The notes under the pieces were generated by a model. It was given only the letters and a program-made list of their open reading frames with translations, had not been told where the DNA came from and ran no database searches. DNA of 64,000 nt, from assembly GCA_943788175.1 (NCBI GenBank), contig CALSPG010000005.1, forward strand, positions 326,211 through 390,210. Reading direction: 5' to 3'. This document shows, piece after piece, positions 219 to 15,648 of this stretch. Numbering within the stretch: position 1 is the stretch's first letter; every line of letters begins with the position of its first letter. The DNA comes from an uncultured bacterium. GTDB lineage: Bacteria; Fidelibacterota; Marinisomatia; Marinisomatales; UBA1611. The position numbers and the translations under genes were made by a program.

Positions 219-292
219 GGGCGTTTAGCTCAGCTGGTCAGAGCGCTGCCCTTACAAGGCAGATGTCGGGAGTTCGAATCTCTCAACGCCCA
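219..292 (+). tRNA. tRNA-Val (anticodon TAC), complete
   Basis: Acceptor stem GGGCGTT/AACGCCC. D-arm AGCTCAGCTGGTCAGAGC. Anticodon stem CTGCC/GGCAG with loop CTTACAA. T-arm GGGAGTTCGAATCTCTC. Discriminator A. CCA is not encoded. Confidence 0.9.
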
Positions 293-478
293 CTTCTCAG
301 AAACCCTCGTTTATTGACGGGGGTTTTTGTTTTTATATAAGTCTGTCAAAGTTATCATTCCTTATCATTGTATGACATTTATAATAATTGGACACATATT
401 TGGAGGACACAACCTAATTCAATTCTTATCTCAACCAAAGTAGGGGGGCATACCCCGTTTGATAGGGGGGGTAGGTAT
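241..478 (+). repeat. Left direct repeat (attL-like): 3' 52 nt of tRNA-Val plus about 185 bp downstream
   Basis: Manual alignment with 10207-10440 gives about 6 mismatches over the first ~147 nt. A more divergent ~40-nt patch with small indels follows, and then a conserved block (cctaattcaatt...aaccaaagtaggggggcataccccgtttgatagg...gtaggtat). Confidence 0.8.
301..334 (+). terminator. Rho-independent terminator after tRNA-Val (lies inside the left direct repeat)
   Basis: Stem CCCTCG (304-309) pairs with CGGGGG (318-323) with one G-U pair, followed by a T-run at 324-334. The same structure recurs at about 10268-10300. Confidence 0.6.
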
Positions 479-529
479 GTGTATATAAGACGCTCACACA
501 TTGAAGGGTAATTTTTTGTAGGTTTAGAT

Positions 530-682
530 ATGGAAATAATTAAGAAATTCTTTGATGGTATTGCTAAGTTTAATTTGAGGAAGTTGAAAGATGCTTTTCC
601 ATCAATAGCAGATAAGATTGATGTAAGACTAACTCCACCCGATGATGATGCATATTTTACTAACCTTTTAAAGGTCATATAA
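530..682 (+). pseudogene. Relic of the 3' end of a second tyrosine integrase
   Basis: It translates to ...AKFNLRKLKDAFPSIADKIDVRLTPPDDDAYFTNLLKVI*. This parallels the C-terminus of the island integrase (YAKFNLRKLRDDFPSLKERINLRLTPPSEDSYFTTLLNAI*). No upstream integrase body is present. Confidence 0.6.
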
Positions 683-860
683 GGAATCCTTTTTACTACA
701 TACTCGGTTTTAAAGAGGGGACGTACTTACCCATATGATAGTTAAGTGATTGGGTATTTATATAACCAAAATATTCTACAAATTTAATTCTATCAATATT
801 AAGTTTTCCCTCTGTTTAAACCTTTTTAATTAACATACCTATCATAAATATTTTTAGAAA

Positions 861-1780
861 ATGAATGAAGACATTAAACTTGCTATAAAAATTCGTTCCA
901 TTGAGGAAAATTTTCTTGAAATGTTTTCCGAGGGTTTATTAAATGGTACAGTTCATACATGCATAGGACAAGAGCTGTCAGGCGTAGGGATATCAAAATT
1001 TTTAAATAGAGACGATTTTGTTTTTAGTAACCATAGGTGCCATGGTCATTATATTTCATTTACTAAAAAATATAAAAACTTAATAGATGAACTAATGGGG
1101 AAAGAATCTGGAGTATGTGGTGGCATTGGTGGTAGTCAGCATATAGCGAGTGATAATTTCTTTTCTAATGGGCCTCAGGGGTCTTTGGCACCTGTTGCAG
1201 TTGGCGTAGCTGAAGGTTTAAAACGCAAAAAAAATAACTCTGTTTCTGTTTGCTTCATCGGTGATGGCACAATGGGTGAAGGTATAATCTATGAATCTAT
1301 GAACTTGATGTCCCTTTATGAATTGCCGATGATTTTGGTATGCGAAAATAACATGTATGCACAATCAACTAGTATAAAAAGTAATTTATCGGGCGATATC
1401 AATTTAAGAGCATCTTCATTTGGAATAAAAGTTTATGAACTTAATACTTGGGATTATGAGGGTCTAATAAAATCCTCTCAAGAGGCAATATCAAACGCAA
1501 GAAAAAATATCCCATCTTTCATTCATATTAATACTTACAGGTTAAAGGCTCATTCAAAAGGAGATGATAACAGAGATGGAAATGAAATTAAAGAATTCGA
1601 AAAAAAGATTTAATAAATAATTTTATCTTAAACAATGATGAATACGCTAAATATTATAAAGAAATAAAAGATAAAATTAGAGCTTATTCTAATTCAGTTA
1701 GTGAAAATTCTCAAATGGACAAAAATAAATATGTGGACGGTGAGAAGCTTAAACTATATAAAAAAATATTCATTATGTGA
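861..1780 (+). CDS. TPP-dependent 2-oxoacid dehydrogenase E1 component, alpha subunit (apparent frameshift in the A7 run at 1600-1606)
   Basis: TPP-binding motif GDGTMGEGIIYESMNLMSLYELPMILVCENN, plus HTCIGQE and GGIGGSQH. After the A7 run, the +2 frame continues with an E1-alpha-like C-terminus (KKDLINNFILNNDEYAKYYKEIKDKIRAYSNSV...) to the TGA at 1778-1780. Confidence 0.8.
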
Positions 1781-2783
1781 TGTGAGAATTGAAAAAAAGC
1801 AATCAGATTTAATTAATAATTATTTTCATGAAAGCATAAATGATGATAAAAATATTTTATTGATTGGTGAAGATATTAAAGATCCTTATGGCGGAGCTTT
1901 TAAAATAACAAAAGGGTTATCTGATAGATATAATGAAAATGTTATTTCCACCCCTATTTCTGAAGCTGCAATAGTAGGCATGGGTATTGGACTATCCATT
2001 CTAGGCTTTAAGCCTTACGTAGAAATCATGTTTGGAGACTTTATCACATATGCGTTTGATCAAATAGTTTCTAATGCTTCTAAGTTTTATCATATGTACA
2101 ATAAAAAGTACAATGTCCCTCTAGTTATAAGGACTCCCATGGGTGGAAATAGAGGCTATGGGCCAACACATTCACAAAGTATTGAAAAATTCTTCATTGG
2201 CGTAAATAACATTCAAATAGTCGCGCTTAATACATTATTGAAGCCAAAAGAAATATATGAATCAATTAAAAATTTTAAACATCTTACACTTTTAATCGAA
2301 AATAAAGTTGATTATGGAAGATTAATCAATTATTCGCCTAAATCTATTAATTATGAATTCAAAAAATCCGACTCTGATTATCCGATAATTACTGGAGAGC
2401 CTGTCAGTGCTAAAGCAAAAATAAGTGTTATTACTTATGGTGGTTCTATCCATCCTGTATTAGAAAGCATAGACGATATATTTTTTGAGTTTGAAGAATT
2501 TATTAAAGTAATTGTAATTACTAAACTGTATCCACTCGACATGGAAGAATTATCATTACTAACAAAGGATTCTTATTTTATAATTACGGTAGAAGAGAGT
2601 AATATTGAAGGTGGGTTTGGTTCAGAAATAATCTCTGGTCTTTCAGAAATAGAAAATGAAAAACAAAAAAAATACTTAAGGATTGGTTCGGAAAATGTAC
2701 CTATACCATCAACAAAAAAACTTGAAAGTGAGATTTTAGTTTCTAAAGATTTAATTGTCCGAAAAATGAAAGAAATGTTATGA
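1731..2783 (+). CDS. 2-oxoacid dehydrogenase E1 component, beta subunit
   Basis: LLIGEDIKDPYGGAFKITKGL, TPISEAAIVGMGIGLSILGFKPYVEIMFGDF and RGYGPTHSQS are typical of the transketolase-like pyrimidine-binding and C-terminal domains. The ATG at 1731 is preferred over the GTG at 1701. The stop overlaps the E2 start (ATGA). Confidence 0.85.
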   Translation: MWTVRSLNYIKKYSLCDVRIEKKQSDLINNYFHESINDDKNILLIGEDIKDPYGGAFKITKGLSDRYNENVISTPISEAAIVGMGIGLSILGFKPYVEIMFGDFITYAFDQIVSNASKFYHMYNKKYNVPLVIRTPMGGNRGYGPTHSQSIEKFFIGVNNIQIVALNTLLKPKEIYESIKNFKHLTLLIENKVDYGRLINYSPKSINYEFKKSDSDYPIITGEPVSAKAKISVITYGGSIHPVLESIDDIFFEFEEFIKVIVITKLYPLDMEELSLLTKDSYFIITVEESNIEGGFGSEIISGLSEIENEKQKKYLRIGSENVPIPSTKKLESEILVSKDLIVRKMKEML

Positions 2784-3979
2784 GCGTAATTGAAACTTTG
2801 AAAATCCCTCAAGATAATGTAAACGATAATGATGTGACTATATCAAGCATTTTCATTGAAAAGAATGATTATGTTGATGTAAATACTCTTGTTTTAGATT
2901 ATGAGACATCAAAAGCAAATTTTGAATTATTTATTACAAAGTCAGGCTATGTGCAGCTTAATTGCAAAGAGGGGGAGATTGTTAAAATTGGACAAACTAT
3001 TGGTATTGTTTCAGATGACAAAGATTACGTCCATCAATTTGAAGAAAATATAAATGAGAAAGAATTTTCTAAACAAACATTCAGCAAAAAAGCAGAAATT
3101 TTAATTAATGAAATGTCAATTGATAAGAGTGTCTTTAAGTATGAACAATTTGTCACTGAGGAAATTGTTAGAAATTTTTTAAATGATTCAAATGACATTA
3201 TACCAAGTGGTGACATAATTAAAATTTCTCCACGAAAATATTTTGAGATAAAAAACTTAACTAATGTTAGTAGGAACGGGCTCGTTTCTACAATTGAAAA
3301 AACAATCAATAGTTCTATAGTTGATACGGACTCAATTTATGAAAAAAATGAGTTTAAAGGGTCATTATCTATTTTGCTCATTAAAGTAATATCAGACTTA
3401 CTTAAAATAGAAAAATATAAACATTTAAATAGTTATTGCGACGGGGAAAATATCTATATTAATAATGATGTAAATTTTGGTCTAGCGCTCAATTTAGGTT
3501 CTGGTCTAAAAATAGGAGTTATAAAAAAATCTAATTCTTTATCAATTAATGAAATAGAATCAAAAACAATACAGTTAATAGATAAATACATTGATGATAA
3601 ACTTCAAAAAGAAGATATTGAGGATTTTTCAATTGTATTGACTGATTTAACAGAAAAAGAGATTGATAACTTTACACCTCTCATTACTTCTTCAAATACA
3701 ATAATGATTGGTTTATGTGGAGTAAAAGGTTCAACCCAAAGATTAATAATCTCATTTGATCACAGAGTTTCAGATGGATTAGAAATTGCAAATTTTATGA
3801 ATGATATTATATCAACTTTAAAAAATGAATATCCCAATTTTATTGATGAAAATAGTTGTTCATCGTGTTTAAAAACTATTGAAGAAGATAAAGAGCTTGA
3901 TACTCCGGGTCTAATAAGAATACTAGGTCATGATAAAACATTAAAATTCATTTGTAGAAATTGTTTAGAAGGATTTTAA
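2780..3979 (+). CDS. Dihydrolipoamide acyltransferase (E2)-like protein: lipoyl domain, E3/E1-binding-like segment, catalytic domain and a C-terminal CxxC...CxxC tail
   Basis: Lipoyl-lysine context LDYETSKANFEL (K45). PSBD-like segment FSKKAEILINEMSIDKSVFKYEQFVTEEIVRNFL. Catalytic motif ISFDHRVSDGLEIANF (DHRxxDG). Tail CSSC-x28-CRNC at 3857-3979. Confidence 0.85.
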   Translation: MSVIETLKIPQDNVNDNDVTISSIFIEKNDYVDVNTLVLDYETSKANFELFITKSGYVQLNCKEGEIVKIGQTIGIVSDDKDYVHQFEENINEKEFSKQTFSKKAEILINEMSIDKSVFKYEQFVTEEIVRNFLNDSNDIIPSGDIIKISPRKYFEIKNLTNVSRNGLVSTIEKTINSSIVDTDSIYEKNEFKGSLSILLIKVISDLLKIEKYKHLNSYCDGENIYINNDVNFGLALNLGSGLKIGVIKKSNSLSINEIESKTIQLIDKYIDDKLQKEDIEDFSIVLTDLTEKEIDNFTPLITSSNTIMIGLCGVKGSTQRLIISFDHRVSDGLEIANFMNDIISTLKNEYPNFIDENSCSSCLKTIEEDKELDTPGLIRILGHDKTLKFICRNCLEGF

Positions 3980-3981
3980 AC

Positions 3982-4203
3982 ATGAGCGATCTAATAATAA
4001 AAAAAATAGTTTCAGTATTTCTTAAAACTAAACCGAATAAAATTACAAATGATACCATAATTGACACCTCGGTAATACAGGGGAGTGTGTTGTTTCATAG
4101 AATGATTGCACGTATAAATGATTATTGTAATATTGAAATTGAAAATTATGATAAAATTCATACTTTCCAAGATTTATTAGATCAAATTAAATTAAAGCAA
4201 TGA
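3982..4203 (+). CDS. Small acyl/peptidyl carrier protein-like protein (73 aa)
   Basis: MSDLIIKKIVSVFLKTKPNKITNDTIIDTSVIQGSVLFHRMIARINDYCNIEIENYDKIHTFQDLLDQI has the size and helix pattern of a carrier protein. The candidate phosphopantetheine-attachment Ser is in the GS motif, followed by an amphipathic helix and an I-E-I turn. The ATG at 3982 lies 3 nt after the E2 stop. Confidence 0.6.
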   Translation: MSDLIIKKIVSVFLKTKPNKITNDTIIDTSVIQGSVLFHRMIARINDYCNIEIENYDKIHTFQDLLDQIKLKQ

Positions 4204-4207
4204 GTTT

Positions 4208-4528
4208 TTGTTAAGATTTGGTGTTGATATTATTGAAATTGATTCATTCCCATCTTTTATTAAAGGTAAGGATGATTCTTTCTTTTTGTATAATTATACA
4301 AAAAGCGAAATAGAATTTGCTAAAAACAAACTCAACCCGGATATTGAGTTTGTTAAAATGTTTTCAATTAAAGAGTCTCTTGTCAAGTCAGACAATTTAT
4401 TAGTAGGAAAGAATTTTAATAAAATAGAATTGTCATTTGTTGGGGATTGTTATATTTATAATGATTACAAGATAACTACATCAACTGCGAACAATAATTG
4501 CATATCATTTGTTTTAAGCACTACGTAA
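4208..4528 (+). CDS. AcpS-type 4'-phosphopantetheinyl transferase (106 aa, TTG start)
   Basis: N-terminus (M)LRFGVDIIEIDSF matches the AcpS G.D.vEi motif. YTKSEIEF and FSIKESLVKS match the AcpS FaaKEA..Ka motif. Confidence 0.65.
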   Translation: MLRFGVDIIEIDSFPSFIKGKDDSFFLYNYTKSEIEFAKNKLNPDIEFVKMFSIKESLVKSDNLLVGKNFNKIELSFVGDCYIYNDYKITTSTANNNCISFVLSTT

Positions 4529-4595
4529 TCTTTTGTAGGCATAATAATTGGTTTAATGTTATGGAGGTGTAAGTAGGGTATGCTTTAAAACGGAG

Positions 4596-4611
4596 GATGA
4601 ACAGATGAACA
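4596..4611 (+). repeat. Tandem octamer GATGAACA x2 (candidate iteron)
   Basis: Perfect direct repeat gatgaaca|gatgaaca in the 135-nt non-coding gap between the cargo operon and the 299-aa gene. The same octamer recurs at 8025-8074. Confidence 0.4.
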
Positions 4612-4663
4612 CTTATTACATATACTACCTACACTATTGAGATGTATGGATTTATATATAAAC

Positions 4664-5563
4664 CTAATTAAGGAGTTCGGGGTAGTCATCAATATCATCT
4701 AAACTATCACTTAAATATTTGGCATCATCGTTACGAAGTAAGTGAGGTGCATATAGAACTAATAGATTAAGAATAGTTTTATCAGTACATCCATAGTGTT
4801 CAGATAATTTCTTCTTATTGATGTTTCCATTCTTTTTAAATCTGATCGAGTCTACAACCTTTTCTAATCTTCCACTTTCTAAGTCTTCTTGAAATGCAAC
4901 TTCGTATCTTTTATTTTTGTATTTCTTTTTTAACTCACGCTCTTTTAATAAGGCTTGTGTTGTTACCCTTAATTGATTTTCTAAAACACTTGCAGAAGTA
5001 TGTACCACGGGTTTTTCTGTTTCAGATAAATTTGGTAAAGTATTTGCATCAAGTAAGGTAGGGGCAAAGTCTATCATAACACCCTTTACTTGAAACCAAT
5101 TTTCAAATTCTAATTTAGGTTTATAAAGAATATGTTCATCAGATATGAACTTGCTTCTGCCGTCATTAAAACTTTTAGGTAACATATTAATTATCCAAGT
5201 GTATATCATTTTATTAAAGGCTATACAAAAGTTCTTATTATCAAGATTCAAACCTTTGATGTAAGAATATTGATTATCAAGAGTAACTTGATGAACTAAT
5301 TTTTCTCCTTGCTTATATTTCCAAGTAGTTGGCTGATTGAAATAAACATTAAAAGAATACAATGGGAACTCATATTCTTCACCATAACCCCATTTCTGAT
5401 AATTCGCTTCGATACCTAATTCATTTTGTTGCTCATTATAGAACTGATTGAAGTCTTGAATCTTTTTATTGATTCTTGTTAAAACTCTTAATCTGTCTTT
5501 CTCATCTCCCCTTATCCATTCATCGGTATAGGGTTTTGTTATCTCTCCTATCAGTAAACTCAA
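4664..5563 (-). CDS. Hypothetical protein (299 aa, TTG start), island-borne
   Basis: Long ORF with a 4-nt overlap (TTGA) with the upstream small ORF. The C-terminal part (KKKLSEHYGCTDKTILNLLVLYAP) looks HTH-like. I do not recognise a family. Confidence 0.5.
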   Translation of the reverse strand: MSLLIGEITKPYTDEWIRGDEKDRLRVLTRINKKIQDFNQFYNEQQNELGIEANYQKWGYGEEYEFPLYSFNVYFNQPTTWKYKQGEKLVHQVTLDNQYSYIKGLNLDNKNFCIAFNKMIYTWIINMLPKSFNDGRSKFISDEHILYKPKLEFENWFQVKGVMIDFAPTLLDANTLPNLSETEKPVVHTSASVLENQLRVTTQALLKERELKKKYKNKRYEVAFQEDLESGRLEKVVDSIRFKKNGNINKKKLSEHYGCTDKTILNLLVLYAPHLLRNDDAKYLSDSLDDIDDYPELLN

Positions 5564-5826
5564 CCTTGTTTGTTATATACCCCACCCCAAGCAAAATTAA
5601 TAGGGAGTAGTTCTTTTAGTTTATCATTATCGATATAATCTGAATTAATCTTATTAGCCTCACACATTTTGTAGATCATTTCTATCAATCCTATTTGTTC
5701 ATAGGCATCTTGTAATGTAGGTGTTTTCTTTTCTTCCATATTTCTTTTTTCGGAGTAATTCCGAAATAATTCGGATTTCGGATGGCGCGAATTTATGATG
5801 TAATAGGGTATGGCACAACTAATCAA
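5560..5826 (-). CDS. Small hypothetical protein (88 aa as drawn; possibly 59 aa from the ATG at 5739)
   Basis: ORF translationally coupled to the 299-aa gene and divergent from the excisionase-like gene. No recognisable motif. Confidence 0.35.
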   Translation of the reverse strand: MISCAIPYYIINSRHPKSELFRNYSEKRNMEEKKTPTLQDAYEQIGLIEMIYKMCEANKINSDYIDNDKLKELLPINFAWGGVYNKQG

Positions 5827-5856
5827 GGTTGGTCATAAACCAATAGGAAATGAATA

Positions 5857-6075
5857 ATGGAAATAAGAATAGTTGAATTATTAAATGAAATAAGAACTCT
5901 AATACTTGGCAAGGTAAATGAGAGATGGTTGAATCTCAGAGATGTATCTGAATACACATCTGTTTCAGAAAGTACAATTCGTAGGGCAATCAAAAAAGGT
6001 GTCCTTAAATCATCAAACAAAACGGGAAGATTACTTTTTAAAGTATCTGATGTTGATAGGTGGCTGAACTCATAA
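5857..6075 (+). CDS. Excisionase/AlpA-type helix-turn-helix DNA-binding protein
   Basis: WLNLRDVSEYTSVSESTIRRAIKKGVLKSSNKTGRLLFKVSDVDRWL fits the excisionase-family HTH pattern. Its stop overlaps the primase ATG (TAATG). Confidence 0.7.
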   Translation: MEIRIVELLNEIRTLILGKVNERWLNLRDVSEYTSVSESTIRRAIKKGVLKSSNKTGRLLFKVSDVDRWLNS

Positions 6076-7996
6076 TGGATTACACCCATATCTTTGAAAG
6101 AGACTTCAAATAGAAGTTAATAAGCGAAGTGGGATTCAATGGCAAGGTAGATGTCCATTACCAAGCCACGAAGATAGAAAAGCATCCTTTTCTTGGAATA
6201 TAGATAACGGACTATGGAAATGTCACGGGTGCTTTGAATCGGGGAATGCTTATCAATTAGCAGAAATATTAGGTATAGCAAACCCATCCCAATATATAGA
6301 AAAAGAAACGGGGGGATATAGGAACAACCCCCCTCCAATACAGAAAGTTAATGTAATGAGTAGTGAAGAACTCGATGCACTTAAAAAAAAGTATCACTCA
6401 AATCTAACTGAACAAGATACCACATTTACCAATCCATATACAATACACGGAAGACGGGATGATGGGAATTTAGTTTTCTTTCTACCCGATGCAATTAAGC
6501 ATCACAAGTCTCAACCATATTGGGAGGGCAACAATAAGAAGTGTCAAATATTTGGTAGTGAATATCTTGCTGAGATAGATGCGAATGATACTCTATACAT
6601 ATTCGAGGGAGAAAAAGAAGTATGTTACTCTCCATACAAGGGAATCAGTTTCACGGCTGGTGCTGGAAATGTTCCCGAAGACTTATCTCAATTATACGCC
6701 TATAAAGATATTTGCATCATTCCCGATAATGATGATGCTGGATATAAGGGTGCTGATAAATGGGCAAAGGTCTGTTCAAGTAAATGGGGTGCATCCGTAA
6801 GGATTGCACAATGGGATGAGACACTCCCAAAAGGTTACGATGTGTATGATGATTATGTCCGTTCAACAAATGGAGATGAAGATTACATATTTGATGAAAC
6901 CGATAAGGCAATCAGCAAAGCAATCCCCTTTAAAGAAAATAACCACAAAACTGAAATTGGAGGTTTCAATACAATGGCAATAAACAACTACATACAAACA
7001 TATCAAGATGAAGAAGTAAGTCATATCATAGATGGATTATTAGTTAAAGGAGGTGTGACAATCCTTGCTGGTTCTGATGGAGTTGGTAAGTCTTGGTTAG
7101 GTTTACAAATGGGATTCTGTATCTCAAATGGAAATGAGTTCTTAGGTTGGGAAACAAAGAAGATGCCCGTTCTGCTTATTCAATTTGAATTAGGTACGGC
7201 TCAACTGAAAGATAGATTACAGATACTATCTAAATCCTATGATATGAATACTGATTTCAATGTGGTAGACCTATCAGATGAAGACCTCATCTTTACAGAT
7301 GCTTGGGATAAGATAGAACAGACTATTGATAATCAATCTTTTACGGATGGAGTTATCATTGTAGATAATCTATATGCAAGTACTGATAAGGATGTATCTC
7401 AAAATCACGAACTCAAACCTATCTTAAAAAAGATAAGAAAGTTGTGTGTGGAGTATGACAATGCTTTTGTCTTGATTGCTCATCACAATAAGAACGAAAA
7501 AGATGATGAGCCGATCCTGACAAAAAAACTGATAACGGGAGGGAAGACACTTACAAATTTCCCCAACAATGTTATTCAAGTTGGCAGTAGCAGTTTAGGT
7601 AATGACATCTTTAGAGGCAAGATTACAAAGATAAGAGATAAAGGTAGTGATTTAATAAACATTCCTTTTATCCTCAACTTTGACCAAGACACTTGTGTTT
7701 TTTCAAGGGGTGTAATCATTGTATCTGAGATACTTCATTGCCAACCCATTAAAAAGAGATGGGAATATGAATTGCTTATAGACTTCCTTGCCTATCAATC
7801 TAATGAGGCGTTTACTCGTTCAAGGTTATGGCAATTCCTATCTACAAAAGACGGATGGGAAAAGACTCCATCAAATCAAACTAAGGTTACAAGGTTTCTA
7901 AGTAGAATGAAAACTTGGGGATTCATTATAGAGCGTGAATACAATCTGTATGAATTAAGCCTTGAAGATATAAGGAGGCTGGAAGAAGAAAGATGA
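6075..7996 (+). CDS. Bifunctional primase-helicase (CHC2 zinc finger, TOPRIM and RecA/DnaB-like P-loop), with an apparent -1 frameshift near 6098-6111
   Basis: MDYTHIFERDFK* in one frame. The next frame continues (no start codon) with ...GRCPLPSHEDRKASFSW...WKCHGCFESGNAY (CHC2 finger), in frame with the 546-aa ORF. TOPRIM motifs are YIFEGEKEV and IIPDNDDAGYKGADKW. Walker A is GSDGVGKSW, Walker B is VIIVDNL, and LIAHHNKN is also present. Confidence 0.8.
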
Positions 7997-8024
7997 TTTA
8001 CGGGGGGTGAATATAGTGTTTAAG

Positions 8025-8074
8025 TGTTCATCTTAGGTGCTTATGTATTCCCCTCTCAAATGAACAGATAAACA
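8025..8074. repeat. GATGAACA-type octamers (one inverted, two direct degenerate copies)
   Basis: tgttcatc at 8025-8032 is the reverse complement of gatgaaca. aatgaaca (8059-8066) and gataaaca (8067-8074) are in tandem. The block lies just downstream of the primase-helicase stop. Confidence 0.4.
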
Positions 8075-8109
8075 GACTTAACCATACATAGCAAGAGGAT
8101 TTAAAGATA

Positions 8110-8454
8110 ATGGAATATAAAGTAATGGACTTTCAAAAATATACAGACTACTTAGGTGATAGGTGGGATGATACTATTGAAATGGGAAAGTTTGATACCT
8201 ATGAAATGGCATTGGAATCGAATGAGTATCATTGAGCAAGACCTTGCAAACGGGTAAGAATGGATTGCCTAAAGATAGTACTTTAGAACTAATTCAATTC
8301 GTAACAGAGTCACATCATACGGGTGGTAATAAGTCTTAATGAAGATGGCTGGATTGTGGTACTACACAAACCCGATATTGTTACAGATGTTACAAATGTT
8401 ACAGATGGCTCAGAAGTAGGTACTCAAGCACACGCTGAACAGGAGGTAAACTAG
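8110..8454 (+). pseudogene. Degraded ORF of unknown function (at least 3 frame changes)
   Basis: Coding-like segments MEYKVMDFQKYTDYLGDRWDDTIEMGKFDTYEMALE / NRMSIIEQDLANG / KNGLPKDSTLELIQFVTESHHTGGNKS / EDGWIVVLHKPDIVTDVTNVTDGSEVGTQAHAEQEVN* lie in successive frames. The track shows no ORF of 60 aa or more between 7997 and 9187. Confidence 0.45.
8376..8405 (+). repeat. Three direct 9-bp-spaced copies of TGTTACA
   Basis: attgttaca gatgttaca aatgttaca gat, with TGTTACA at 8379, 8388 and 8397. It lies within the degraded ORF and codes IVTDVTNVTD. Confidence 0.35.
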
Positions 8455-8456
8455 GG

Positions 8457-8799
8457 CTATCTCTCACTCAGAACAGAGAGACATCGACTTGTCAAAACTT
8501 GACATTGAAGATGATATTTTCCCCCCTAAAAAAGGTGCAGATGAGGATAGTAACTCCCCCAATTTTGGCAGAGGTCAGCATCCTAATTCAAAGAAGAATC
8601 TGAAGCCATTATGAGAAAGGTGTTAGTGGTAATCCATCGGGTAAACCAAAAAAGGTAGCACAATTAAAAGAGGTCTTAGATTGGTGGGGTAGGCTTAACT
8701 GAATATGATAATTGGTCTTGGGATAAATACACCAATAGAGCAAATGGTAGTCAAAGGTATATGGAAAAGAGCAACCTCATGGTAATAGACAAGACTTAG
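8457..8799 (+). pseudogene. Relic of a small phage-type protein with an NLKP...G.SGNP.G.PK motif (DUF5681/small-terminase-like)
   Basis: ...GRGQHPNSKKNLKPL* is followed after a frame change by YEKGVSGNPSGKPKKVAQLKEVLDWWGRLN*, and after another by EYDNWSWDKYTNRANGSQRYMEKSNLMVIDKT*. I recall the motif from phage DUF5681/TerS-like proteins. An HMM search is needed to confirm. Confidence 0.4.
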
Positions 8800-8990
8800 A
8801 TATTTGCTATCACTTGGATTACTTGATTCAGACAAGTTTAAAGACTAATTTAGGAACGCTTAAATCAACATGTTAAATATACCTAAATACAATTCCCCCT
8901 ATGAGATGTGGTCAGCAGTAATGCCCCAAACGATTTCAACATGTTATCGTAAGCCATCTTTGGGGGGATGTAGGTAATAGGAGTCAGCAT

Positions 8991-10106
8991 ATGGCTACAT
9001 ATATAAAACAAAGAAAACGTCAGTACTCATCCCGTATTCAATGGAGAGACTGAGAATGGTAATAAGAGAGAACGAAAAATACCTCTTAAAACTTCTTCTA
9101 AATCTGTTGCAGTAGTCAGAAACAATGAAGTAACGAAAGTTGAAGATACTATTATCGATGGAGATAATTGGTCTTTTGCTTGGATGAATGATGATGGTAA
9201 AAGTTAAACTAATTAGATTATCTATTAGCGAGGCTTATGAAGAATATAGGATTGTCCAAAACATAGATGGAGTGAGAGCGTCTACGCTCGATCGAGTTGA
9301 TAACTCTATGAAGACACTATATAAAGTCTTTGGAGAGAACTATCCAATAGCATCATTAACATACTCGCATATAGAACAATTCAAAGAGTATTGGCACGGA
9401 ACACATCAACCAACTACAATGAATATTAATCTATCAAAGATTAAAGCGTTTCATAATTGGTGTCTTAAAAAAAGATATACTATAAAAGATGTAGAGTTTA
9501 AGATGGTTAAGGAAGATGAAAAGCCTCCACAATATCTAACAGATGCTGAGTTTAAAAGCATAATGAAATGTGATATAATAGATGACCATTTCAAGAAAGC
9601 ATTTGTATTCTATTTGTATACGGGTTGTAGAAAAACAGAACCATTTATTGCAGACTTAAATGGTAATTGGCTTACAATCAAATCAACAGATGCTAAGTCT
9701 CACAGAACTCGTGATATTGAATTAAATGAAGTAACTAAGGGCATAGTTCAAGATATGAGAGATAGGTATCATTACTATATGGATGAATATGCACAGAAAC
9801 CAAGAAATGTGATTATGAACTATGGTAAGCAGTTCAAAAAGGCTTGTAGATACTTAGGTATCAAGGGCAAGACCTTACATTCATTGAGACATACTTATGC
9901 AGTTAGACGCTGGGCAATCACGGGAGACATTAAGATGGTATCTCAAGAGATTGGTCATAGTCTCAGTAGTGATGACAGAGAAGTATGCTAAGTTCAATCT
10001 TAGAAAGTTAAGAGATGATTTCCCCTCATTAAAAGAGCGTATCAATCTTAGACTTACTCCACCAAGTGAAGACTCATATTTTACTACGCTTTTAAATGCT
10101 ATTTAG
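8991..10106 (+). pseudogene. int: Tyrosine recombinase (phage integrase family) with at least 3 frameshifts
   Basis: N-terminus MATYIKQRKRQYSSRIQWRD, then a shift to ENGNKRERKIPLKTSSKSVAVVRNNEV...AWMNDDGKS, then a shift into the 267-aa ORF. That ORF carries box I (TGCRKTE), box II (HSLRHTYA) and GHS. A further shift precedes SVVMTEKYAKFNL, which holds the catalytic Tyr. The breaks are not at long homopolymers. Confidence 0.8.
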
Positions 10107-10206
10107 AGGCATAAAATGGCAAAGAGGACACGTTTTGGAGGATACACCTAATAGACCTAAAATGCTAAGTGTAGTAATATATGTAGTTAGGAGTTAAAAA
10201 CGCTGA

Positions 10207-10440
10207 GAGCGTTGCCCTTACAAGGCAGATGTCGGGAGTTCGAATCTCTCAACGCCCACTCCTCAGAAACCCTCGTTTATTGACGGGGGTTTTTGTTTTT
10301 CTACAAGTCTGTCAAAGTCGTCATTCCTTATCATTGTATGACATTTATAATAGGAACTTTGGAGGCTACCAAGCCCTAATTCAATTACTTATTTCAACCA
10401 AAGTAGGGGGGCATACCCCGTTTGATAGGTCGGTAGGTAT
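10207..10440 (+). repeat. Right direct repeat (attR-like): partial tRNA-Val (3' ~52 nt) plus about 180 bp downstream
   Basis: gagcgttgcccttacaaggcagatgtcgggagttcgaatctctcaacgcccac... duplicates 241-478. It lacks the 5' acceptor and D arm, so it is not a functional tRNA. Confidence 0.8.
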
Positions 10441-10504
10441 CTTTGATTTAAAATTTTATGTTTTTATTGAAAAGAACTATCGGAAGAAATAACTATAAAT
10501 GTAA

Positions 10505-10549
10505 ATATTTTGAGGTTCAAACTTTGAATAAATTCAAACCTCAAAATAT
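10505..10549. terminator. Bidirectional hairpin terminator downstream of cspA
   Basis: A 13-bp stem, atattttgaggtt (10505-10517) with aacctcaaaatat (10537-10549). Both sides are T-rich. Confidence 0.55.
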
Positions 10550-10579
10550 CATTTTTAATAAAAAAGTTACTAGAGTAGT

Positions 10580-10792
10580 CTATTTAGGTACTACGTTTGT
10601 TGCGCAAGGACCTTTATCAGAAGAACCTTCTTCATAATCAACTTCCTGCCCGTCTCTTAAGGTTTTGTACCCATCCATTTGAATCTCATTCATATGAACA
10701 AATAAGTCTTTATCACCATCTTTTGGTGCTATAAATCCAAATCCTTTTTTATCATTGAACCATTTTACGGTTCCTTCTTTTACATCACTCAT
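10580..10792 (-). CDS. cspA: Cold-shock protein (CspA family)
   Basis: [15 protein letters not shown] (RNP1-like) and DLFVH (RNP2-like); 70 aa. Confidence 0.9.
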
Positions 10793-10930
10793 TTTATTAT
10801 TTTCCTACTTTTGTTTATTTATTCAATTATTACTTATTTAATTGAATACTGCAATTTAATACTGTTATTACATAAATAAATTTAATTATTATTTAAGTCT
10901 ATAAAAAAATATATTGCATAGTTTAATCAC

Positions 10931-10951
10931 ATTATCACAATTTTTGATAAT
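10931..10951. promoter_or_regulatory. Inverted repeat ATTATCA-N7-TGATAAT overlapping the start codon of the His/Cys-rich gene (candidate metalloregulator operator)
   Basis: attatca (10931-10937) and tgataat (10945-10951). ATTATC/GATAAT hexamers are the building blocks of Fur-type boxes. In AT-rich DNA this could arise by chance. Confidence 0.25.
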
Positions 10952-11273
10952 GAAAAAATCGATAAATAAATTCATTTTAACTGGGATAGCTCTTTTATTT
11001 TTTAGCTCGATTTTTCATTTAGATCATACTCCGGCGCACGAGCATCAAAATGGATACAACATATGCAATATAGGATGTAAGGATATTGAGCATCATTCTT
11101 ATTCTCATCAATGTGAAAAGTGTTTAAGCAAAACCCAAAGATATGTAAGTGTAAATCTTTTTGATTTATCACTTCATAACAACTCAACATCATTTGACAA
11201 TCCTAAAGACATTACTTTTTCTAAATTCATAAATTTTAATTCAAATAAAAGAGCCCCACCCATTATCCTTTAG
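10950..11273 (+). CDS. Small His/Cys-rich membrane-anchored or secreted protein, paralog of 15045-15392
   Basis: MKKSINKFILTGIALLFFSS (signal or TM), then HLDHTPAHEHQNGYNICNIGCKDIEHHSYSHQCEKC, and ...KRAPPIIL at the C-terminus. The pattern H.H...GY.ICN..C....HH.....C.KC...RAPP is shared with the paralog. Confidence 0.6.
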   Translation: MKKSINKFILTGIALLFFSSIFHLDHTPAHEHQNGYNICNIGCKDIEHHSYSHQCEKCLSKTQRYVSVNLFDLSLHNNSTSFDNPKDITFSKFINFNSNKRAPPIIL

Positions 11274-11463
11274 ATTTTATTAAAGGAGCAACAGTTTCAG
11301 TAAAAATACATTTTGTATGCAATGAGTGCATGCCAGTTTCGTATTTGTCGTAAACATCTATCATCAATTTTTCAGTAATGATTATAATTGAATTATGATT
11401 GAGAAATTTGATGCTCCTAAATCTTTGTTCAAAAATATCTTTTGAAAATCATAAAGGAAACAA

Positions 11464-11877
11464 ATGATGTTAAATTCAATAAATATTTCGATAAAAAATA
11501 TTAAAGTAGATAGTCTTGGCGCTTTGGTAAGCGGCTTATGCATGTTGCATTGTCTTGCAACGCCAATCTTTTTTATTGCTTCAGCTTGTTCAGCAGCATG
11601 TTGTAACTTTGCTCCAACTTGGTGGCAATCATTAGATTATATTTTTCTAGTTATTTCTCTTTTTGCTGTAATCCAAGCATCTAGAAATTCAAATAGTTCA
11701 TTGGTTCCTAGGGGGCTACTAGCTAGTTGGTTAGGGTTAGGTTTTTTTATATTGAACGCTAAGTTTGGTTGGATTAGCGTTCATCAGAATATTAAGTTTA
11801 TTCCTGCGTTTCTTCTTATTGGATTTCATCTATACAATATGAAGTACTGTCAATGTGAGAGCAATGAATGTTGCTAA
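11464..11877 (+). CDS. MerC-like membrane protein with a Cys-rich C-terminus
   Basis: GALVSGLCMLHCLATPIFF is the MerC-domain-type C.LHC motif in TM1. There are four predicted TM stretches, a CSAACC segment, and a tail CQCESNECC. Confidence 0.6.
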   Translation: MMLNSINISIKNIKVDSLGALVSGLCMLHCLATPIFFIASACSAACCNFAPTWWQSLDYIFLVISLFAVIQASRNSNSSLVPRGLLASWLGLGFFILNAKFGWISVHQNIKFIPAFLLIGFHLYNMKYCQCESNECC

Positions 11878-11911
11878 ATTATTTAATGTTTTTTTAATGA
11901 GAGGATGAAGA

Positions 11912-12160
11912 ATGAAAGAAAATGAATTTCCACTTCTAAAGATTACAAATATTGATTGGGATCCAGATCATGAAGAATTTGAAAAATTACCCAAAAAATT
12001 AGAGCTTAAATGGGATAAAAAAAATTGGACCATCGATGATGTTTCAAACTGGTTAAGTCTTGAATTTGACTGGGTTTTTAACAGTCTTAATATTAATCAA
12101 GTTGGAATTTGGGAGAATGGTGGTTGTAGTTGCTGCGCTGGCGGATGTAGTTGCTGCTAA
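11912..12160 (+). CDS. 82-aa acidic, Trp-rich protein with the C-terminal tail GGCSCCAGGCSCC
   Basis: The ORF has an RBS-like gagg upstream. The last 13 residues contain 6 Cys in two GGCSCC repeats. It ends 4 nt from the convergent TonB-dependent receptor stop. Confidence 0.55.
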   Translation: MKENEFPLLKITNIDWDPDHEEFEKLPKKLELKWDKKNWTIDDVSNWLSLEFDWVFNSLNINQVGIWENGGCSCCAGGCSCC

Positions 12161-12164
12161 ATTT

Positions 12165-14393
12165 TTAAATACGAAACCTGTAATTAATATTGAATCCTAG
12201 CCCGGGTTCAGGCATTATCATTTTAATTTTAGATAAATGATTATAATAGGTTTCATTTAATATATTAGATACTTGAAATATTAATTGATGCATGCTATTA
12301 TTTTTACTAAAAGTATACGTACAGTTATAATTAAAAAGTTTGTATCCATTTGTTGGCGTTTCAAACTCACCAAGTTTATCTTGATTAGAAACTAACAAAA
12401 ATTCAAAAGTGTTATTTAAAAACAGAATATTTTTTTCTATTTGAAATCGAATCAAATCTGGAGGAATGTATGCCAGTGACATATCGTTCTGTAAATCTAA
12501 ACCTCGACATATTGAGGCATTTCCTAATAGGTTAAAATATTTTAGATTAATCTTAAAATTTGGCTCAAACCCATAAATCAAGGTTTCAAGGCCAAATATT
12601 TTATATTTATATAACCAACCTGAAGACCCACTACCCCACTCAATCCAATCGGCCCCAGTTTCGTAACCATCTCCCATTTTTTGAAAAATGTGAAAATTAG
12701 AGCTATAGTTTATATAACTGGTAAGATTGAATTCATTTTTATCATTAAAAAAAGAAAAAGTATTTTCAAATCCTAATGTATTCTCCTGATCAAGCTTTGG
12801 TTCGCCAATCTCATACGAATAGCTTCCTAGATGGGGACCATCAGAATATAGATCTTCGATTTTTGGAGCGCGGCTTGTGTACAGAATATGATTGTATATT
12901 GAATAATTTTTTCTCTTATTTAGTGCTGATATACCAAAAGAAAACAATATAAAATCACGTTTTTTTACATCTTCGGGTTCAATATTAGAAAAGAAAGTAT
13001 CTTCAACACTAGGGTTGATTGATCGGTATTCAATCCTTCCAGAAAATTGCAATTTAAGGTTATCATACTTTCTATTATTTATGCCAAATACAGCTAATTT
13101 TGTTTCATTGGAATTTGGAGTCCATATAAAACCGCGTGTAAGGTAGTCTCTATTTTGATAGTTAATACCAATTTTTAATGTTTCTCCGCTCAGTAAAGCA
13201 TTCAAATAAATAATATTTTGTCTCAAATCAACAGATGCATAATTAGCATCCTTAACAAATTCCTTGTGCCCATATCTAATGTATCCTTGTTCAATATCTA
13301 AAATATTAAATGAAAAAAGTTTAATATCGCTGTGATACATTAATTTTTGGCTTTGATTTTTTAGTTCTAAGTCAACTCCATTAATATGTCCCTCTGGACT
13401 TCCTGGGATTCCATAATCCATTGAAAAATCTTTTATTTGAAGGGAAGTGAAATTTTTGGCACCAAACTTTGTTACAGCTATTGAAAGGTCGTTTTTTATT
13501 AATGCTGTATTTTTTAGAGAACCCAAGGGAGAAGATTGATCATTAGATTTTCTATTAGTTATTGACGTAAAAAGTTGATAGGTGTTTAATGGAATACTAA
13601 TATTTGTTCCTAAAAGCTTTGACTGGTTCGAGCTCTCATGTCCAAAAAATACATTATATAAAGCTCGTTCTATCTTTTTTTGACTATTCATTGGAGATAG
13701 TATGTTAATTATACCAGCAATAGTGTTTGACCCATAGGCTAAGGTCTCTGGTCCTCGCATTACTTCTATACCTTCTGCAGAAGAAATTTCCATGCTCACC
13801 GCGTGGTCGGCAGTAGTGTTAGATAAATCACCAAGTTCAAAACCATCAGAGGTAATTAGGAATCTATCCCCTGAGTATCCTCTTAGAATAGGTCTTTGGG
13901 TTGCTTGCCCGGATGATCTCATCGCAACACCAGACTCCCCAGTAAGAGTGGTCGCAAGGTCGCTATTAATGTTTTTTTTCAATCTACTACCAATCATCGA
14001 TATTGAAGATGGGGCTTTATTCTTATTGCTCTCTTCATGTGAATGGACTGTTACTCCGCTCATTTGGATTGTTTTAGGAGTCAAAAAAACTTTGTATTTA
14101 TTCTTTATATTTTTGTGACTTACAAATAAGGTTGTATCCTTGAACCCAATCATCGAAATCTTTATTTCATTTTTCTTTAAATTATCTAAAGAGAGTGAAA
14201 AAGTTCCTAATTCACTGGAGACTGTACCAAGATCACTATCTACAATATAAACATTAGCACCAGATATAGGTTTCAGATTACTATTGTCAAATATTACTCC
14301 TTTAATTGATGCTACTTCTTGAGCAGAAAGTGAGTTGATAAAAAATAGAGCTATATATAGAGGTAGATAACGCACGAAAAGAAGGAGTATCAT
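12165..14393 (-). CDS. TonB-dependent receptor (CarboxypepD_reg-like N-domain, plug and barrel)
   Basis: IKGVIFDNSNLKPISGANVYIV (carboxypeptidase-regulatory-like). Plug motifs PILRGYSGDRFLITSDG and IEVMRGPETLAYGSNTIAGIINI. Long beta-barrel ending NINYRFRI. Confidence 0.85.
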   Translation of the reverse strand: MILLLFVRYLPLYIALFFINSLSAQEVASIKGVIFDNSNLKPISGANVYIVDSDLGTVSSELGTFSLSLDNLKKNEIKISMIGFKDTTLFVSHKNIKNKYKVFLTPKTIQMSGVTVHSHEESNKNKAPSSISMIGSRLKKNINSDLATTLTGESGVAMRSSGQATQRPILRGYSGDRFLITSDGFELGDLSNTTADHAVSMEISSAEGIEVMRGPETLAYGSNTIAGIINILSPMNSQKKIERALYNVFFGHESSNQSKLLGTNISIPLNTYQLFTSITNRKSNDQSSPLGSLKNTALIKNDLSIAVTKFGAKNFTSLQIKDFSMDYGIPGSPEGHINGVDLELKNQSQKLMYHSDIKLFSFNILDIEQGYIRYGHKEFVKDANYASVDLRQNIIYLNALLSGETLKIGINYQNRDYLTRGFIWTPNSNETKLAVFGINNRKYDNLKLQFSGRIEYRSINPSVEDTFFSNIEPEDVKKRDFILFSFGISALNKRKNYSIYNHILYTSRAPKIEDLYSDGPHLGSYSYEIGEPKLDQENTLGFENTFSFFNDKNEFNLTSYINYSSNFHIFQKMGDGYETGADWIEWGSGSSGWLYKYKIFGLETLIYGFEPNFKINLKYFNLLGNASICRGLDLQNDMSLAYIPPDLIRFQIEKNILFLNNTFEFLLVSNQDKLGEFETPTNGYKLFNYNCTYTFSKNNSMHQLIFQVSNILNETYYNHLSKIKMIMPEPGLGFNINYRFRI

Positions 14394-14434
14394 AAAAAAA
14401 CTAAAAGCTGCCCAGACATTGATCTAGGCAGCTT
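14394..14434 (-). terminator. Intra-operon hairpin with T-run between the lipoprotein gene and the receptor gene
   Basis: An 8-bp stem, aagctgcc (14405-14412) with ggcagctt (14427-14434). On the minus strand it is followed by a T-rich run (complement of 14394-14404). Confidence 0.5.
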
Positions 14435-14452
14435 CTTGTCTAATTACTACGA

Positions 14453-14978: not shown

Positions 14979-15044
14979 AAAATGCTCCTTTAAAATTTTA
15001 AAATAGAATTGTACTAATTTATTAGTACGAGTGTAATACTGTTT

Positions 15045-15392: not shown

Positions 15393-15480
15393 AAAAAGAG
15401 AGAACTAATTTAGTAATTAATACAAATAGAGTTACTATTCAAATTTTCACATTATAAAAATTAATTGCATTGTTTTAATA

Positions 15481-15505
15481 ATTGATATTGAGACTAAATA
15501 TCAAT
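15481..15505. promoter_or_regulatory. Palindrome ATTGATAT-N9-ATATCAAT in the divergent promoter region between the flavodoxin gene and the His/Cys-protein/receptor operon
   Basis: Perfect 8-bp arms. The preceding aataattgatat resembles Fur-box half sites. This is a candidate shared operator, with support from sequence only. Confidence 0.25.
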
Positions 15506-15648
15506 ATGTGTATATTCACCTATTGGTTATTAAAATACAAAAATAAAAACAAATGGGTTCTGTTCTAAATTATAAGTAATACTTAAAATTGGTTCCAAAA
15601 CTATGAATGGGACCCGTTTTGTTTTTTTAAATATTTAAAGGATAAAAA

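Follow-up and report, generated by a model that had tools for sequence, protein, structure and literature searches.

We describe here a 10-kb island inserted at a tRNA-Val gene in the genome of an uncultured marine bacterium of Candidatus Marinimicrobia (SAR406, Fidelibacterota). The window, by which we mean the whole stretch of DNA that was analysed, comprises 64 kb (positions 326,211 to 390,210 of contig CALSPG010000005.1); the island occupies its region 479-10205, with one copy of a long attachment (att) repeat at each end. We conclude, with a probability of about three in four, that the island is a decayed site-specific element that integrated into tRNA-Val, and that its long repeats stem from the element's own P' arm together with an older relic arm on the host side. 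The site itself, located between lon and cspA, is a polymorphic integration hotspot in Candidatus Marinimicrobia, since it is empty in some relatives and carries different or tandem inserts in other strains. Related contigs are designated by our own handles (L001 and so on).

The tRNA-Val site and its end repeats

The integration target is a complete tRNA-Val(TAC) gene whose 3' part recurs 10 kb further on. The features of the site are listed below; the assignments to core and arms are those that we propose in the third section.

219-293 (ARAGORN; 219-292 with Rfam, 73.4 bits), plus strand: complete tRNA-Val(TAC), the integration target
240-478, plus strand: attL, the left direct repeat, made up of the 3' part of the tRNA and a putative element-borne P' arm
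247-262, plus strand: anticodon stem-loop TGCC-CTTACAA-GGCA, putative core (crossover) site
304-328, plus strand: terminator hairpin of the left repeat
390-396 and 405-411, plus strand: pair of predicted arm-type sites, GGACACA, in the left repeat
443-456, plus strand: hairpin GGGGGGCATACCCC of the left repeat
470-478, plus strand: end motif GGTAGGTAT of the left repeat
480-534, plus strand: conserved element 'left end', GTGTATATAAGACGCTCACACATTG...
10107-10205, plus strand: putative P arm of the att site, between the integrase gene and the partial tRNA, with the conserved motif CTAAGTGTAGTAATATA
10124-10132 and 10137-10147, plus strand: predicted P-arm site pair of the window, degenerate, GAGGACACG and GGAGGATACAC
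10206-10440, plus strand: attR, the right direct repeat, made up of a partial tRNA-Val (10206-10259) and a putative host-resident relic P' arm
10580-10792, minus strand: cspA (Pfam CSD), the host gene flanking the hotspot

A repeat finder matched 240-386 with 10206-10352 (147 nt, 96%, six mismatches) and 425-466 with 10388-10429 (42 nt, 98%), and the global alignment of 240-479 with 10206-10441 gave 221 matches, 10 mismatches and 14 gap columns (90.2%). Nearly all gaps fall in one patch (386-412 on the left, 10353-10380 on the right), and the homology ends exactly after GGTAGGTAT, at 478 and 10440. The right repeat contains the 3' 54 nt of the tRNA (one mismatch, 98%), the tRNA terminator, the divergent patch and the GGGGGGCATACCCC hairpin. 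The original prediction, made from the letters of the window, had described such a partial tRNA copy 10 kb downstream, about six mismatches over the first ~147 nt followed by a divergent patch, and a duplication that runs ~185 bp beyond the tRNA through its terminator and a second hairpin; all of this was recovered by the repeat finder and the alignment. A full tRNA gene and a 3' partial copy of it, arranged as direct repeats, are what a tRNA-targeting element leaves at its ends. No further copy of the repeat was found within the 64-kb window. The window has two other tRNA genes, tRNA-Arg(TCT) at 27792-27866 (minus strand) and tRNA-Leu(TAG) at 58363-58446 (plus strand), and contains no partial copy of either.

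The two repeats end differently. The left one ends in GGGGGGGTAGGTAT followed by GTGTATATAAG, as in the element-borne copies of L010, L098, L001 and L179; the element-borne flank copies all end in GGGGGGTAGGTAT followed by GTGTATATAAG. The host copies adjoining cspA all end in GGTCGGTAGGTAT followed by CTTTGATT, and attR runs unbroken into the cspA side, collinear with the empty sites described next.

Empty and occupied sites were found by an exact-sequence look-up of the CspA protein, which matched 335 blocks of the collection. Three contigs (L002, L003 and L004) have full empty sites, in the order lon, tRNA-Val, flank, cspA; the flank is single there, and lon and cspA lie ~435 bp apart. A fourth (L007) has the same cspA-flank-tRNA-Val junction and stops before lon. 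The island is bounded by repeats, as the original prediction had it, and the empty sites that it proposed to look for exist in some relatives. At the same or related att sites other contigs hold other DNA. The insert of L001 is a tandem array in which two partial tRNA-plus-flank copies divide two different elements, and its cargo (10597-17160) encodes a glycosyltransferase, a flippase, MurA-like fragments and a lipoprotein, that is, glycan genes. L005 carries a 2.2-kb insert with a formyltransferase gene (10600-12750), L006 an insert with an MBOAT acyltransferase and an integrase tail (7138-9556), and L179 at least 10 kb (5445-15053) with a type IX secretion system (T9SS) nuclease, a glycerol facilitator, glycerol kinase, glycerol-3-phosphate dehydrogenase and GDPD. 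The cargo of these four contigs is mostly related to the cell surface or to nutrient use. A related element was also present in a Marinimicrobia single-cell genome (L016). The exact-match clusters of CspA, of the MerC-domain protein and of the TonB receptor likewise bear the source name Candidatus Marinimicrobia or Neomarinimicrobiota (now Fidelibacterota); a host in the Flavobacteriia, considered at first because of the low GC and a CarboxypepD_reg TonB receptor, was given up on this account.

We considered that the second repeat might be an assembly duplication, or the island a chimeric assembly, for which nothing speaks beyond the usual risk that repeats bring to metagenome assemblies. The repeat copies differ from each other at the 10 mismatches and 14 gap columns given above, the right copy continues into cspA exactly like the empty sites while the left copy has the element-type end, and the arrangement of partial tRNA and flank recurs in independent assemblies (twice in L001, and in L005, L179, L010 and L098). 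Since the copies differ and the same architecture is found in independent assemblies, an assembly duplication is excluded, and we attach practically no probability to this explanation.

Backbone genes, their decay and the circular form

The island belongs to a family of elements that share a backbone: a gene for a 356-aa protein (p356), transcribed divergently, a helix-turn-helix gene (HTH_17), a primase-helicase gene, a DUF5681 gene, a c4-like RNA candidate and a lambda-type integrase gene. Between the att site and a conserved non-coding block lies a variable cargo slot that is replaced from copy to copy. The backbone is intact in L010, L011, L098-L103 and L179; L178, a long contig with a family member from a long-read assembly whose genes are fragmented throughout, was left out. 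The closest intact relative, L010, is about 90% identical to the window over 4657-10440. Its genes are ordered p356 (reverse), HTH, primase-helicase (640 aa), DUF5681 (243 aa) and integrase (371 aa), and the integrase gene is followed after ~90 nt by a partial tRNA-Val, the 185-nt flank, sequence like 480-534 and then other genes. In the window the backbone is represented as follows.

4670-5739, minus strand: p356 pseudogene, broken into pieces in frames -3, -1 and -2 (tblastn, p356 of L010 as query); its intact homologues encode a conserved protein of 356 aa
4664-5826, minus strand: two open reading frames (ORFs) without assigned function
5857-6075, plus strand: HTH_17 protein (excisionase/AlpA-type), 72 aa (Pfam PF12728, 4e-11; PHROG 66, excisionase/regulator)
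6076-7996, plus strand: primase-helicase with zf-CHC2, Toprim-like and AAA_25 domains (PHROG 239, DNA primase/helicase)
8110-8843, plus strand: DUF5681 (TerS-like) pseudogene with frameshifts and stops (tblastn pieces in frames 1, 2 and 3)
8893-8971, plus strand: c4-2-like structured RNA candidate (Rfam RF02944), just upstream of the integrase start
8991-10106, plus strand: lambda-type tyrosine integrase pseudogene (tblastn pieces in frames 3, 1, 2 and 3)
9188-9991, plus strand: integrase ORF

The only intact backbone gene is that of the HTH_17 protein, which is 87% identical to its L010 counterpart. The ATG of the primase-helicase gene overlaps the HTH stop codon (TAATG, ~6073-6078); twelve codons past this ATG, an A-run near 6112 has lost 1 nt, as its alignment with L010, L099 and L102 shows. 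The resulting frameshift leads to a stop, and the longest remaining ORF (6356-7996) encodes the AAA_25 helicase; the homologues are 640 aa long and carry an N-terminal DnaG zinc finger. No ORF of more than 46 aa was found on the plus strand of 8000-9188, where the DUF5681 relic lies, and the intact L010 homologue of this gene scored 32.4 bits against a Pfam cut-off of 27.5. The 356-aa protein had no match in Pfam, PHROG, NCBIfam or PDB.

The integrase gene shows at least three frame changes relative to the intact L010 integrase (Int). Two are single-base insertions resolved against relatives, one in the N-terminal region and one at ~9961, and a third insertion was seen against the frameshifted copy of L001. 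The last frameshift parts the GHS motif from the catalytic tyrosine (TEKY), now out of frame. The window integrase therefore lacks the full in-frame R-K-H-R-H-Y set of an active recombinase, which the intact relatives L010 and L179 possess.

Long ORFs cover 0.60 of the backbone and 0.85 of the rest of the window; coverage is also somewhat lower at 12-16 kb and 24-28 kb. The frameshifted spots of the window backbone lie at about 5540-5580, 6112, 8230-8460, 9053-9070, 9200 and 9961. The integrase copy of L001 carries different, independent lesions. Because the lesions of the window are confined to the element and those of L001 are independent, the decay is real, and a sequencing or assembly-wide error is unlikely. 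Judged by its reading frames, the island is a decayed, inactive member of a family of elements of 6.7-7.65 kb. The HTH gene, its coupling to the primase gene, the DUF5681 relic and the integrase at the right repeat had all been recognised in the original prediction, a gene list that was mostly right; it overlooked the cargo operon (861-4528), the pseudogene state of the backbone outside HTH, the minus-strand gene at 4670-5739 and the repeat between 562-681 and 9986-10105.

Intact relatives reveal the unit of the element. L010 spans 1.08 units with a period of 7648 nt and a self-identity of 97.6%, and L098, from a different project and sample, is a 99.3% identical circular permutation of L010 that stops 77 nt short of closure. 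In L122, a more distant member (primase about 45% identical), an exact terminal overlap of 38 nt gives a 6672-nt circle, of which L106 is a 99.8% permutation. The samples behind these contigs are ERZ27275035 (L010), Ga0070754 (L098 and L106) and 3300025853 (L122). The attP junctions of L010, L098 and L122 contain the 3' part of the tRNA and the whole 185-nt flank. As these attP-bearing contigs are permuted or overlap at their ends, the unit is a circle, a concatemer or a collapsed tandem. The relatives accordingly combine a replication module of their own and a circular or concatemeric form with zero structural genes among their ORFs.

Scans with single primase-helicase proteins gave no close relatives in viral contigs or GTDB genomes, and a primase profile scan of genomes returned three short contigs only, the family being essentially absent from species-representative genomes. 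One further contig, L127 (MDTB01215757.1, 9244 nt), encodes a primase-helicase of only 40% identity, and its positions 11-81 contain the flank hairpin and the left end with 94% identity to window 431-502. With so divergent a primase beside the same arm, L127 indicates that distinct replication modules share the att arm. The left end (480-534) is also common to L010 (6838-6894), L098 (4999-5055) and L001 (17160-17114), and occurs in the tRNA-Lys element L122.

Arm-type sites and the length of the repeats

An AlphaFold model of the family integrase (predicted local distance difference test, pLDDT, 89.4) had as its best Foldseek matches in PDB the full-length lambda Int structures 1z1b and 1z1g, aligned over 362-369 of 371 columns with E = 4e-10. 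In the model the N-terminus forms strands at 3-6, 13-20 and 26-32 and a helix at 38-50; the Pfam arm-domain models found no match in the family integrase. Residues R214, K236, H297, R300, H323 and Y332 are invariant in the intact integrases of L010 and L179.

We then compiled the sequences that flank each anticodon-stem core. In intact elements a 9-10-mer occurs twice in the P arm, 14-15 nt apart, and the same motif occurs twice in the P' flank, ~97-117 nt past the tRNA end. The predicted arm-type motifs are the following.

L010 and L098: TTAGGACAA
L102: TATGGATACA
L122, L106 and L012: AAGGTACAC
L179: GTAGGACACC in the P arm and TATGGACACGC in the flank of the next element

The P-arm layout is found with exact 9-11-mers in L010, L098, L102, L122 and L179; in the window the sites of the P' flank, TTGGACACA and GAGGACACA, are degenerate like those of its P arm. 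None of 2000 shuffles equalled the paired pattern, 13 of the 15 family loci have a tandem pair close to the int end, and the divergent patch between the window repeats coincides exactly with the arm-type site pair. On the evidence of this covariation arm-type sites exist in the family, and the N-terminal domain of Int probably binds them in pairs, which would make it a heterobivalent integrase. The arm sites and the lambda-like model together argue that the 185-nt flank is a lambda-style P' arm. The arm appears to belong to the element, because the same layout is found at another target: L122, which targets tRNA-Lys(TTT), has a P' arm with a similar terminator, a site pair, AACTCAACC, and GGGGGTAGGTAT joined to GTGTAYATA and further on CTCACACA, as in the tRNA-Val flank, and L012, which also targets tRNA-Lys and has the arm motif of L122, adjoins an unrelated host flank at its integrated right junction.

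As to the core, the homology of all partial tRNA copies starts 7-8 nt 5' of the anticodon stem, and the first base of this stem, a C in the genuine tRNA, is a T in five of the six partial copies (the L005 copy has C). Both observations point to an exchange in the anticodon loop. Strand exchange most likely takes place in the anticodon stem-loop, which would fit an overlap of 6-8 bp flanked by inverted core sites. An attempt to map the crossover by phasing single-nucleotide polymorphisms (SNPs) failed, as the flank alleles are mosaic between host and element copies.

These data suggest the following course of events. Int would bind the P-arm pair and the P'-arm pair and exchange strands in the anticodon stem-loop of the tRNA, after which the element-borne P' arm (185 nt) would follow the reconstituted tRNA and supply its terminator. 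The host lineage would already have had a solo, older P' arm 3' of tRNA-Val, present in all the 'empty' sites; since integrase arm sites are of no use to a host, this spacer is most simply read as a solo arm that an older element left behind. A new integration would then place a fresh P' arm beside the tRNA and push the partial tRNA and the relic arm to the far end, and because of the pre-existing relic arm this would yield imperfect direct repeats of ~235 bp. Such long repeats would also permit integrase-independent loss of the element by homologous recombination, and this would account for the arm-site alleles of the empty sites, which resemble those of different element lineages. The arm pairs of the empty sites are intact in L002 and L004 (TTGGACACAT twice) and halved in L007, and L003, like the right copy of the window, has one degenerate site. 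The conserved-block alleles are likewise mosaic between host and element copies, which would fit repeated loss by homologous recombination or gene conversion.

Two origins had been offered for the long repeats by the original prediction, an attP that mimics the tRNA flank or successive integrations of related elements. Both survive in part, since attP carries the flank in L010, L098 and L122 and the site appears to have been occupied successively; the direction of the mimicry is most likely the reverse. The converse would be that the element captured the tRNA-Val spacer of the host, for example by one aberrant excision, so that attP mimics the flank. This agrees with the presence of the flank in every empty site examined, and the flank holds the tRNA terminator, which the host needs anyway. 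However, it also holds paired arm sites that vary from element to element, each time in agreement with the P arm of the element concerned, and under capture these sites would have had to arise anew inside the captured DNA. The arm layout, terminator and GGGGGTAGGTAT/GTGTAYATA end shared with the tRNA-Lys-targeting L122, and the unrelated host flank at L012, the one integrated tRNA-Lys junction examined, are equally hard to reconcile with it. We consider capture improbable and retain a decayed tRNA-Val element whose long repeats come from its own P' arm and an older relic arm.

Several points weigh against this conclusion. The direction from element arm to host flank rests on parsimony, and 'virgin' tRNA-Val sites that lack the flank were not found; gene conversion or selection would be needed to keep the two blocks around the divergent patch so nearly identical; and the SNPs locate the crossover no more closely than 3' of the base that opens the anticodon stem. 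Arm-site binding, like excision and replication, is predicted. Instead of free circles, L010 and L098 could represent tandem copies in a chromosome that the assembly collapsed, and the single-base frameshifts could in principle, though improbably, be sequencing errors.

Inwards of the left repeat the island begins with the conserved left end, and a trace of a further element comes next.

530-790, plus strand: apparent relic of another element's integrase C-terminal tail and P arm

An intact ORF of 50 aa (530-682) matches the last 39 residues of a related integrase, those after the catalytic tyrosine; in tblastn, L010 Int residues 333-371 are 64% identical to it. At the DNA level the repeat finder aligned 562-681 with 9986-10105 (120 nt, 73%). 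The P-arm-like motifs AAAGAGGGGACGT and TTAAGTGATTGGGTATTTATATAAC, read by eye, follow 3' of the relic tail, and there is no partial tRNA. This suggests that 530-~790 is the remnant of a former tandem neighbour reduced by deletions, or of a rearrangement. A 398-aa gene at the left end of L001 was examined as an integrase that could be the source of the relic tail and turned out to be a lipoprotein/hydrolase-like ORF.

Cargo, packaging and known systems

The cargo slot of the window is filled by a 3.7-kb operon (861-4528; GC 25-30%) that makes up about 40% of the island and is bordered by a conserved block. All five genes were identified with Pfam and NCBIfam.

861-1613, plus strand: E1 alpha
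1701-2783, plus strand: E1 beta
2780-3979, plus strand: E2 acyltransferase with lipoyl domain
3961-4203, plus strand: acyl carrier protein (ACP)-like protein
4208-4528, plus strand: 4'-phosphopantetheinyl transferase (PPTase)
4526-4617, no strand assigned: conserved non-coding block of ~90 nt that borders the cargo slot on its inner side and contains the tandem octamer GATGAACAGATGAACA (4596-4611)

The NCBIfam matches are all below the equivalog cut-offs. The cargo ORFs contain zero internal stops; E1 alpha covers ~255 of 315 profile positions, the first ones, and may be C-terminally short. E2 carries a lipoyl-lysine-like ETSKA motif and DHRVSDG. The gene set suggests an acyl transfer from a 2-oxoacid or ketose to a carrier protein and not to CoA; similar E1/E2/ACP sets make glycolyl-ACP in some antibiotic pathways. 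Directly upstream of lon (L002, 13195-17986) the host has fused E1, E2, lipoyl synthase and lipoate-protein ligase genes, next to which, a few kb away, the island places another, strongly diverged E1/E2 set; the cargo as a duplicate of the host cluster was rejected, the identity being just 22-31%. In L010 and L098 the slot holds other genes (p79 and p204 in L010), and exact-sequence look-ups of the window primase-helicase and E2 proteins returned no records. The operon is probably the part that has been retained in a dead element.

The block at 4526-4617 is kept at 82-90% in L010 (twice), L098, L001, L012, L102 and L103, where its neighbours vary. No stable fold was found in it (z = 0.41). The octamer GATGAACA occurs twice in tandem in the block, and five of its six exact copies in the window lie within the island; its reverse complement, TGTTCATC, resembles TGTTCACC, which we take to be the P4 ori iteron. 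The block is a candidate origin of replication or packaging (pac) site.

On the cspA side of the hotspot, window 10914-12160 encodes a 119-aa His/Cys-rich protein, a MerC-domain membrane protein (11464-11877) and an 82-aa protein ending in GGCSCCAGGCSCC (11912-12160), with an HMA-domain gene further on in related contigs. This group may be a metal-handling cluster.

The family could consist of phage satellites of the PICI or VEIME kind, which would excise at helper infection, replicate with their own primase-helicase and use DUF5681 to steer the large terminase (TerL) of the helper towards packaging 7-kb concatemers. We hold the chances of this to be even. It is compatible with the att anatomy and makes a stronger claim about lifestyle, and the window copy is dead either way. 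The units of 6.7-7.65 kb have no structural or lysis genes, and their permuted or overlapping contigs are expected of circles or concatemers. Tailed-phage contigs of about 36 kb in IMG/VR encode primase-helicases that share 39-41% identity with that of the family. Among these, L035 (IMGVR_UViG_3300021197_000501, 35,987 nt; primase-helicase 39% identical) encodes TerL, a portal, a major head protein, tail genes and two DNA methyltransferases, and about ten more IMG/VR contigs of 34-38 kb, which lack annotation, have primase-helicases 27-40% identical. Contigs like L035 may be related to a helper, or may have supplied the replication module.

The other arguments for a satellite come from DUF5681 and the RNA candidate. 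In all six phage-like IMG/VR contigs examined, a small protein with the DUF5681 motif is encoded at the TerS position beside a PHROG large terminase, immediately upstream of it in five and one gene upstream in the other. The phage motif reads G[KQ]HPNS[RK]KNLKPFPxGxSGNP, and hhalign gave a probability of 95.9% over the ~40-residue motif, to which the likeness to phage proteins is confined. However, the central part of the DUF5681 protein is poorly modelled (pLDDT 58.8), the model matches no small terminase (TerS), whether solved or predicted, to a significant degree in PDB and BFVD, and a DUF5681 profile search of PDB sequences found nothing; structure having failed to identify a TerS, gene position in the phage contigs gave the sole signal. 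A TerS-like gene without TerL is the pattern of PICIs. The c4-2 candidate reached 35.1 bits (E = 2e-4) in the window, 39.5 in L010 (5294-5371), 39.5 in L103 (6495-6572) and 31.5 in L102 (4543-4618), all below the gathering score of 41, and its block is strongly kept in the DNA alignment of the window with relatives. We therefore regard it as a conserved c4-2 candidate below the threshold of the c4 clan (Rfam CL00128). The c4-type antisense RNAs are regulators of phage immunity.

The viral collections speak against a satellite. Genes for HTH, DUF5681 or Int accompanied none of the 80 viral matches to the primase profile in IMG/VR, the P'/left-end junction motif was not found in IMG/VR, and the GenBank phages held no match to the family, so that the search for encapsidated copies proposed beforehand found none in either collection, neither of which is a direct test of packaging in virions. 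Carriage of cargo and tandem accretion are equally tycheposon-like, and vesicles or other routes of transfer are possible. Comparable marine elements are, on the other side, packaged as concatemers (PMC9618062).

Of the satellite repertoire seen by the original prediction, the family gene set stands, with its phage-type primase-helicase and DUF5681 and without capsid, tail or lysis genes; the window copy itself is degraded and bears cargo. Given this degradation and the metabolic cargo operon, a cargo-carrying tycheposon-like island fits better than a 'minimal' satellite. More tentatively, and with chances somewhat short of even, we picture TerS-bearing, self-replicating 7-kb satellites of Marinimicrobia whose arm sites co-evolve with their integrases, which target tRNA-Val and tRNA-Lys, stack in tandem and carry surface or metabolic cargo, and whose solo P' arms remain as footprints that record the last occupant lineage and allow integrase-independent loss.

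SAR406/Marinimicrobia is an abundant ocean phylum of which no member has been cultured. To our knowledge none of its phages and hardly any of its mobile elements have been characterised, and in the literature searched we found no description of tRNA-targeting, cargo-carrying integrative elements in Marinimicrobia. The locus and its relatives define a coherent family of SAR406 elements and a tRNA-Val hotspot with strain-specific cargo for glycan modification, acyl-carrier chemistry and glycerol use. The pairs of arm-type sites and the conserved P'/left-end junction (GGTAGGTATGTGTAYATA as search motif) provide tags with which metagenomes and viromes can be searched for circular or packaged forms. 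The relic P' arm of the 'empty' sites means that seemingly virgin sites can be scars, which matters when long att repeats are used to infer a mechanism. The window copy by itself is ordinary, a dead element keeping a cargo operon, and the explanation of its long repeats is specific and ordinary in principle.

The logic by which the island was built is that of the tycheposons of Prochlorococcus, tyrosine-recombinase elements inserted at tRNA genes with full and partial tRNA ends (Hackl et al., bioRxiv 10.1101/2020.12.28.424599). Tycheposons have an integrase, an excisionase, a primase/helicase module, adaptive cargo and PICI-like terS variants, and they form tandem arrays and remnants that build islands (bioRxiv 10.1101/2020.12.28.424599). 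As described, all these traits are matched by the SAR406 family, in which variable cargo, a conserved integration and replication module, tandem accretion and remnants occur together, and both are found in streamlined marine bacteria. They differ in the host phylum, in the DUF5681 and 356-aa genes, which are specific to the SAR406 family, and in the attachment repeats, of about 40 nt in tycheposons and 235 nt here because of the relic P' arm.

VEIMEs are by definition elements that purified virions yield in the form of concatemers (Eppley et al. 2022, PMC9618062). Like the SAR406 elements they are small and marine, have an integrase, an AlpA/excisionase protein, a primase-helicase and sometimes TerS, lack capsid genes and are integrated in dominant plankton; they were recovered from virions, whereas the SAR406 family is known from sequence alone. 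With PICIs, SaPIs and PICMIs, the last described from Vibrionaceae (PMC10803314), the family shares an integrase, a regulator/excisionase, a replication initiator of its own, a TerS-like gene without TerL or structural genes, and site specificity. In contrast to them it has no recognisable capsid-size or interference genes, and its replication protein is a T7 gp4-like primase-helicase of the zf-CHC2/Toprim/RecA type.

Finally, lambda Int and its attP resemble the family in the three predicted domains of the integrase, with a sheet and a helix at the N-terminus, and in the arm sites on both sides of an inverted-repeat core with a 7-nt spacer. The core of the family most likely lies in a tRNA anticodon stem-loop, its P' sites are situated some 100-125 nt beyond the end of the tRNA and about 150 nt from the core, and the attB side of the host appears to have a relic P' arm, unlike lambda attB. 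A long identity between attP and attB is found in Haemophilus influenzae phage HP1, where it is of the order of 180 bp and extends from the tRNA anticodon region in the 3' direction. In HP1 this identity is said to reconstitute the tRNA operon; the SAR406 repeat is mostly non-coding arm DNA with putative integrase-binding sites.

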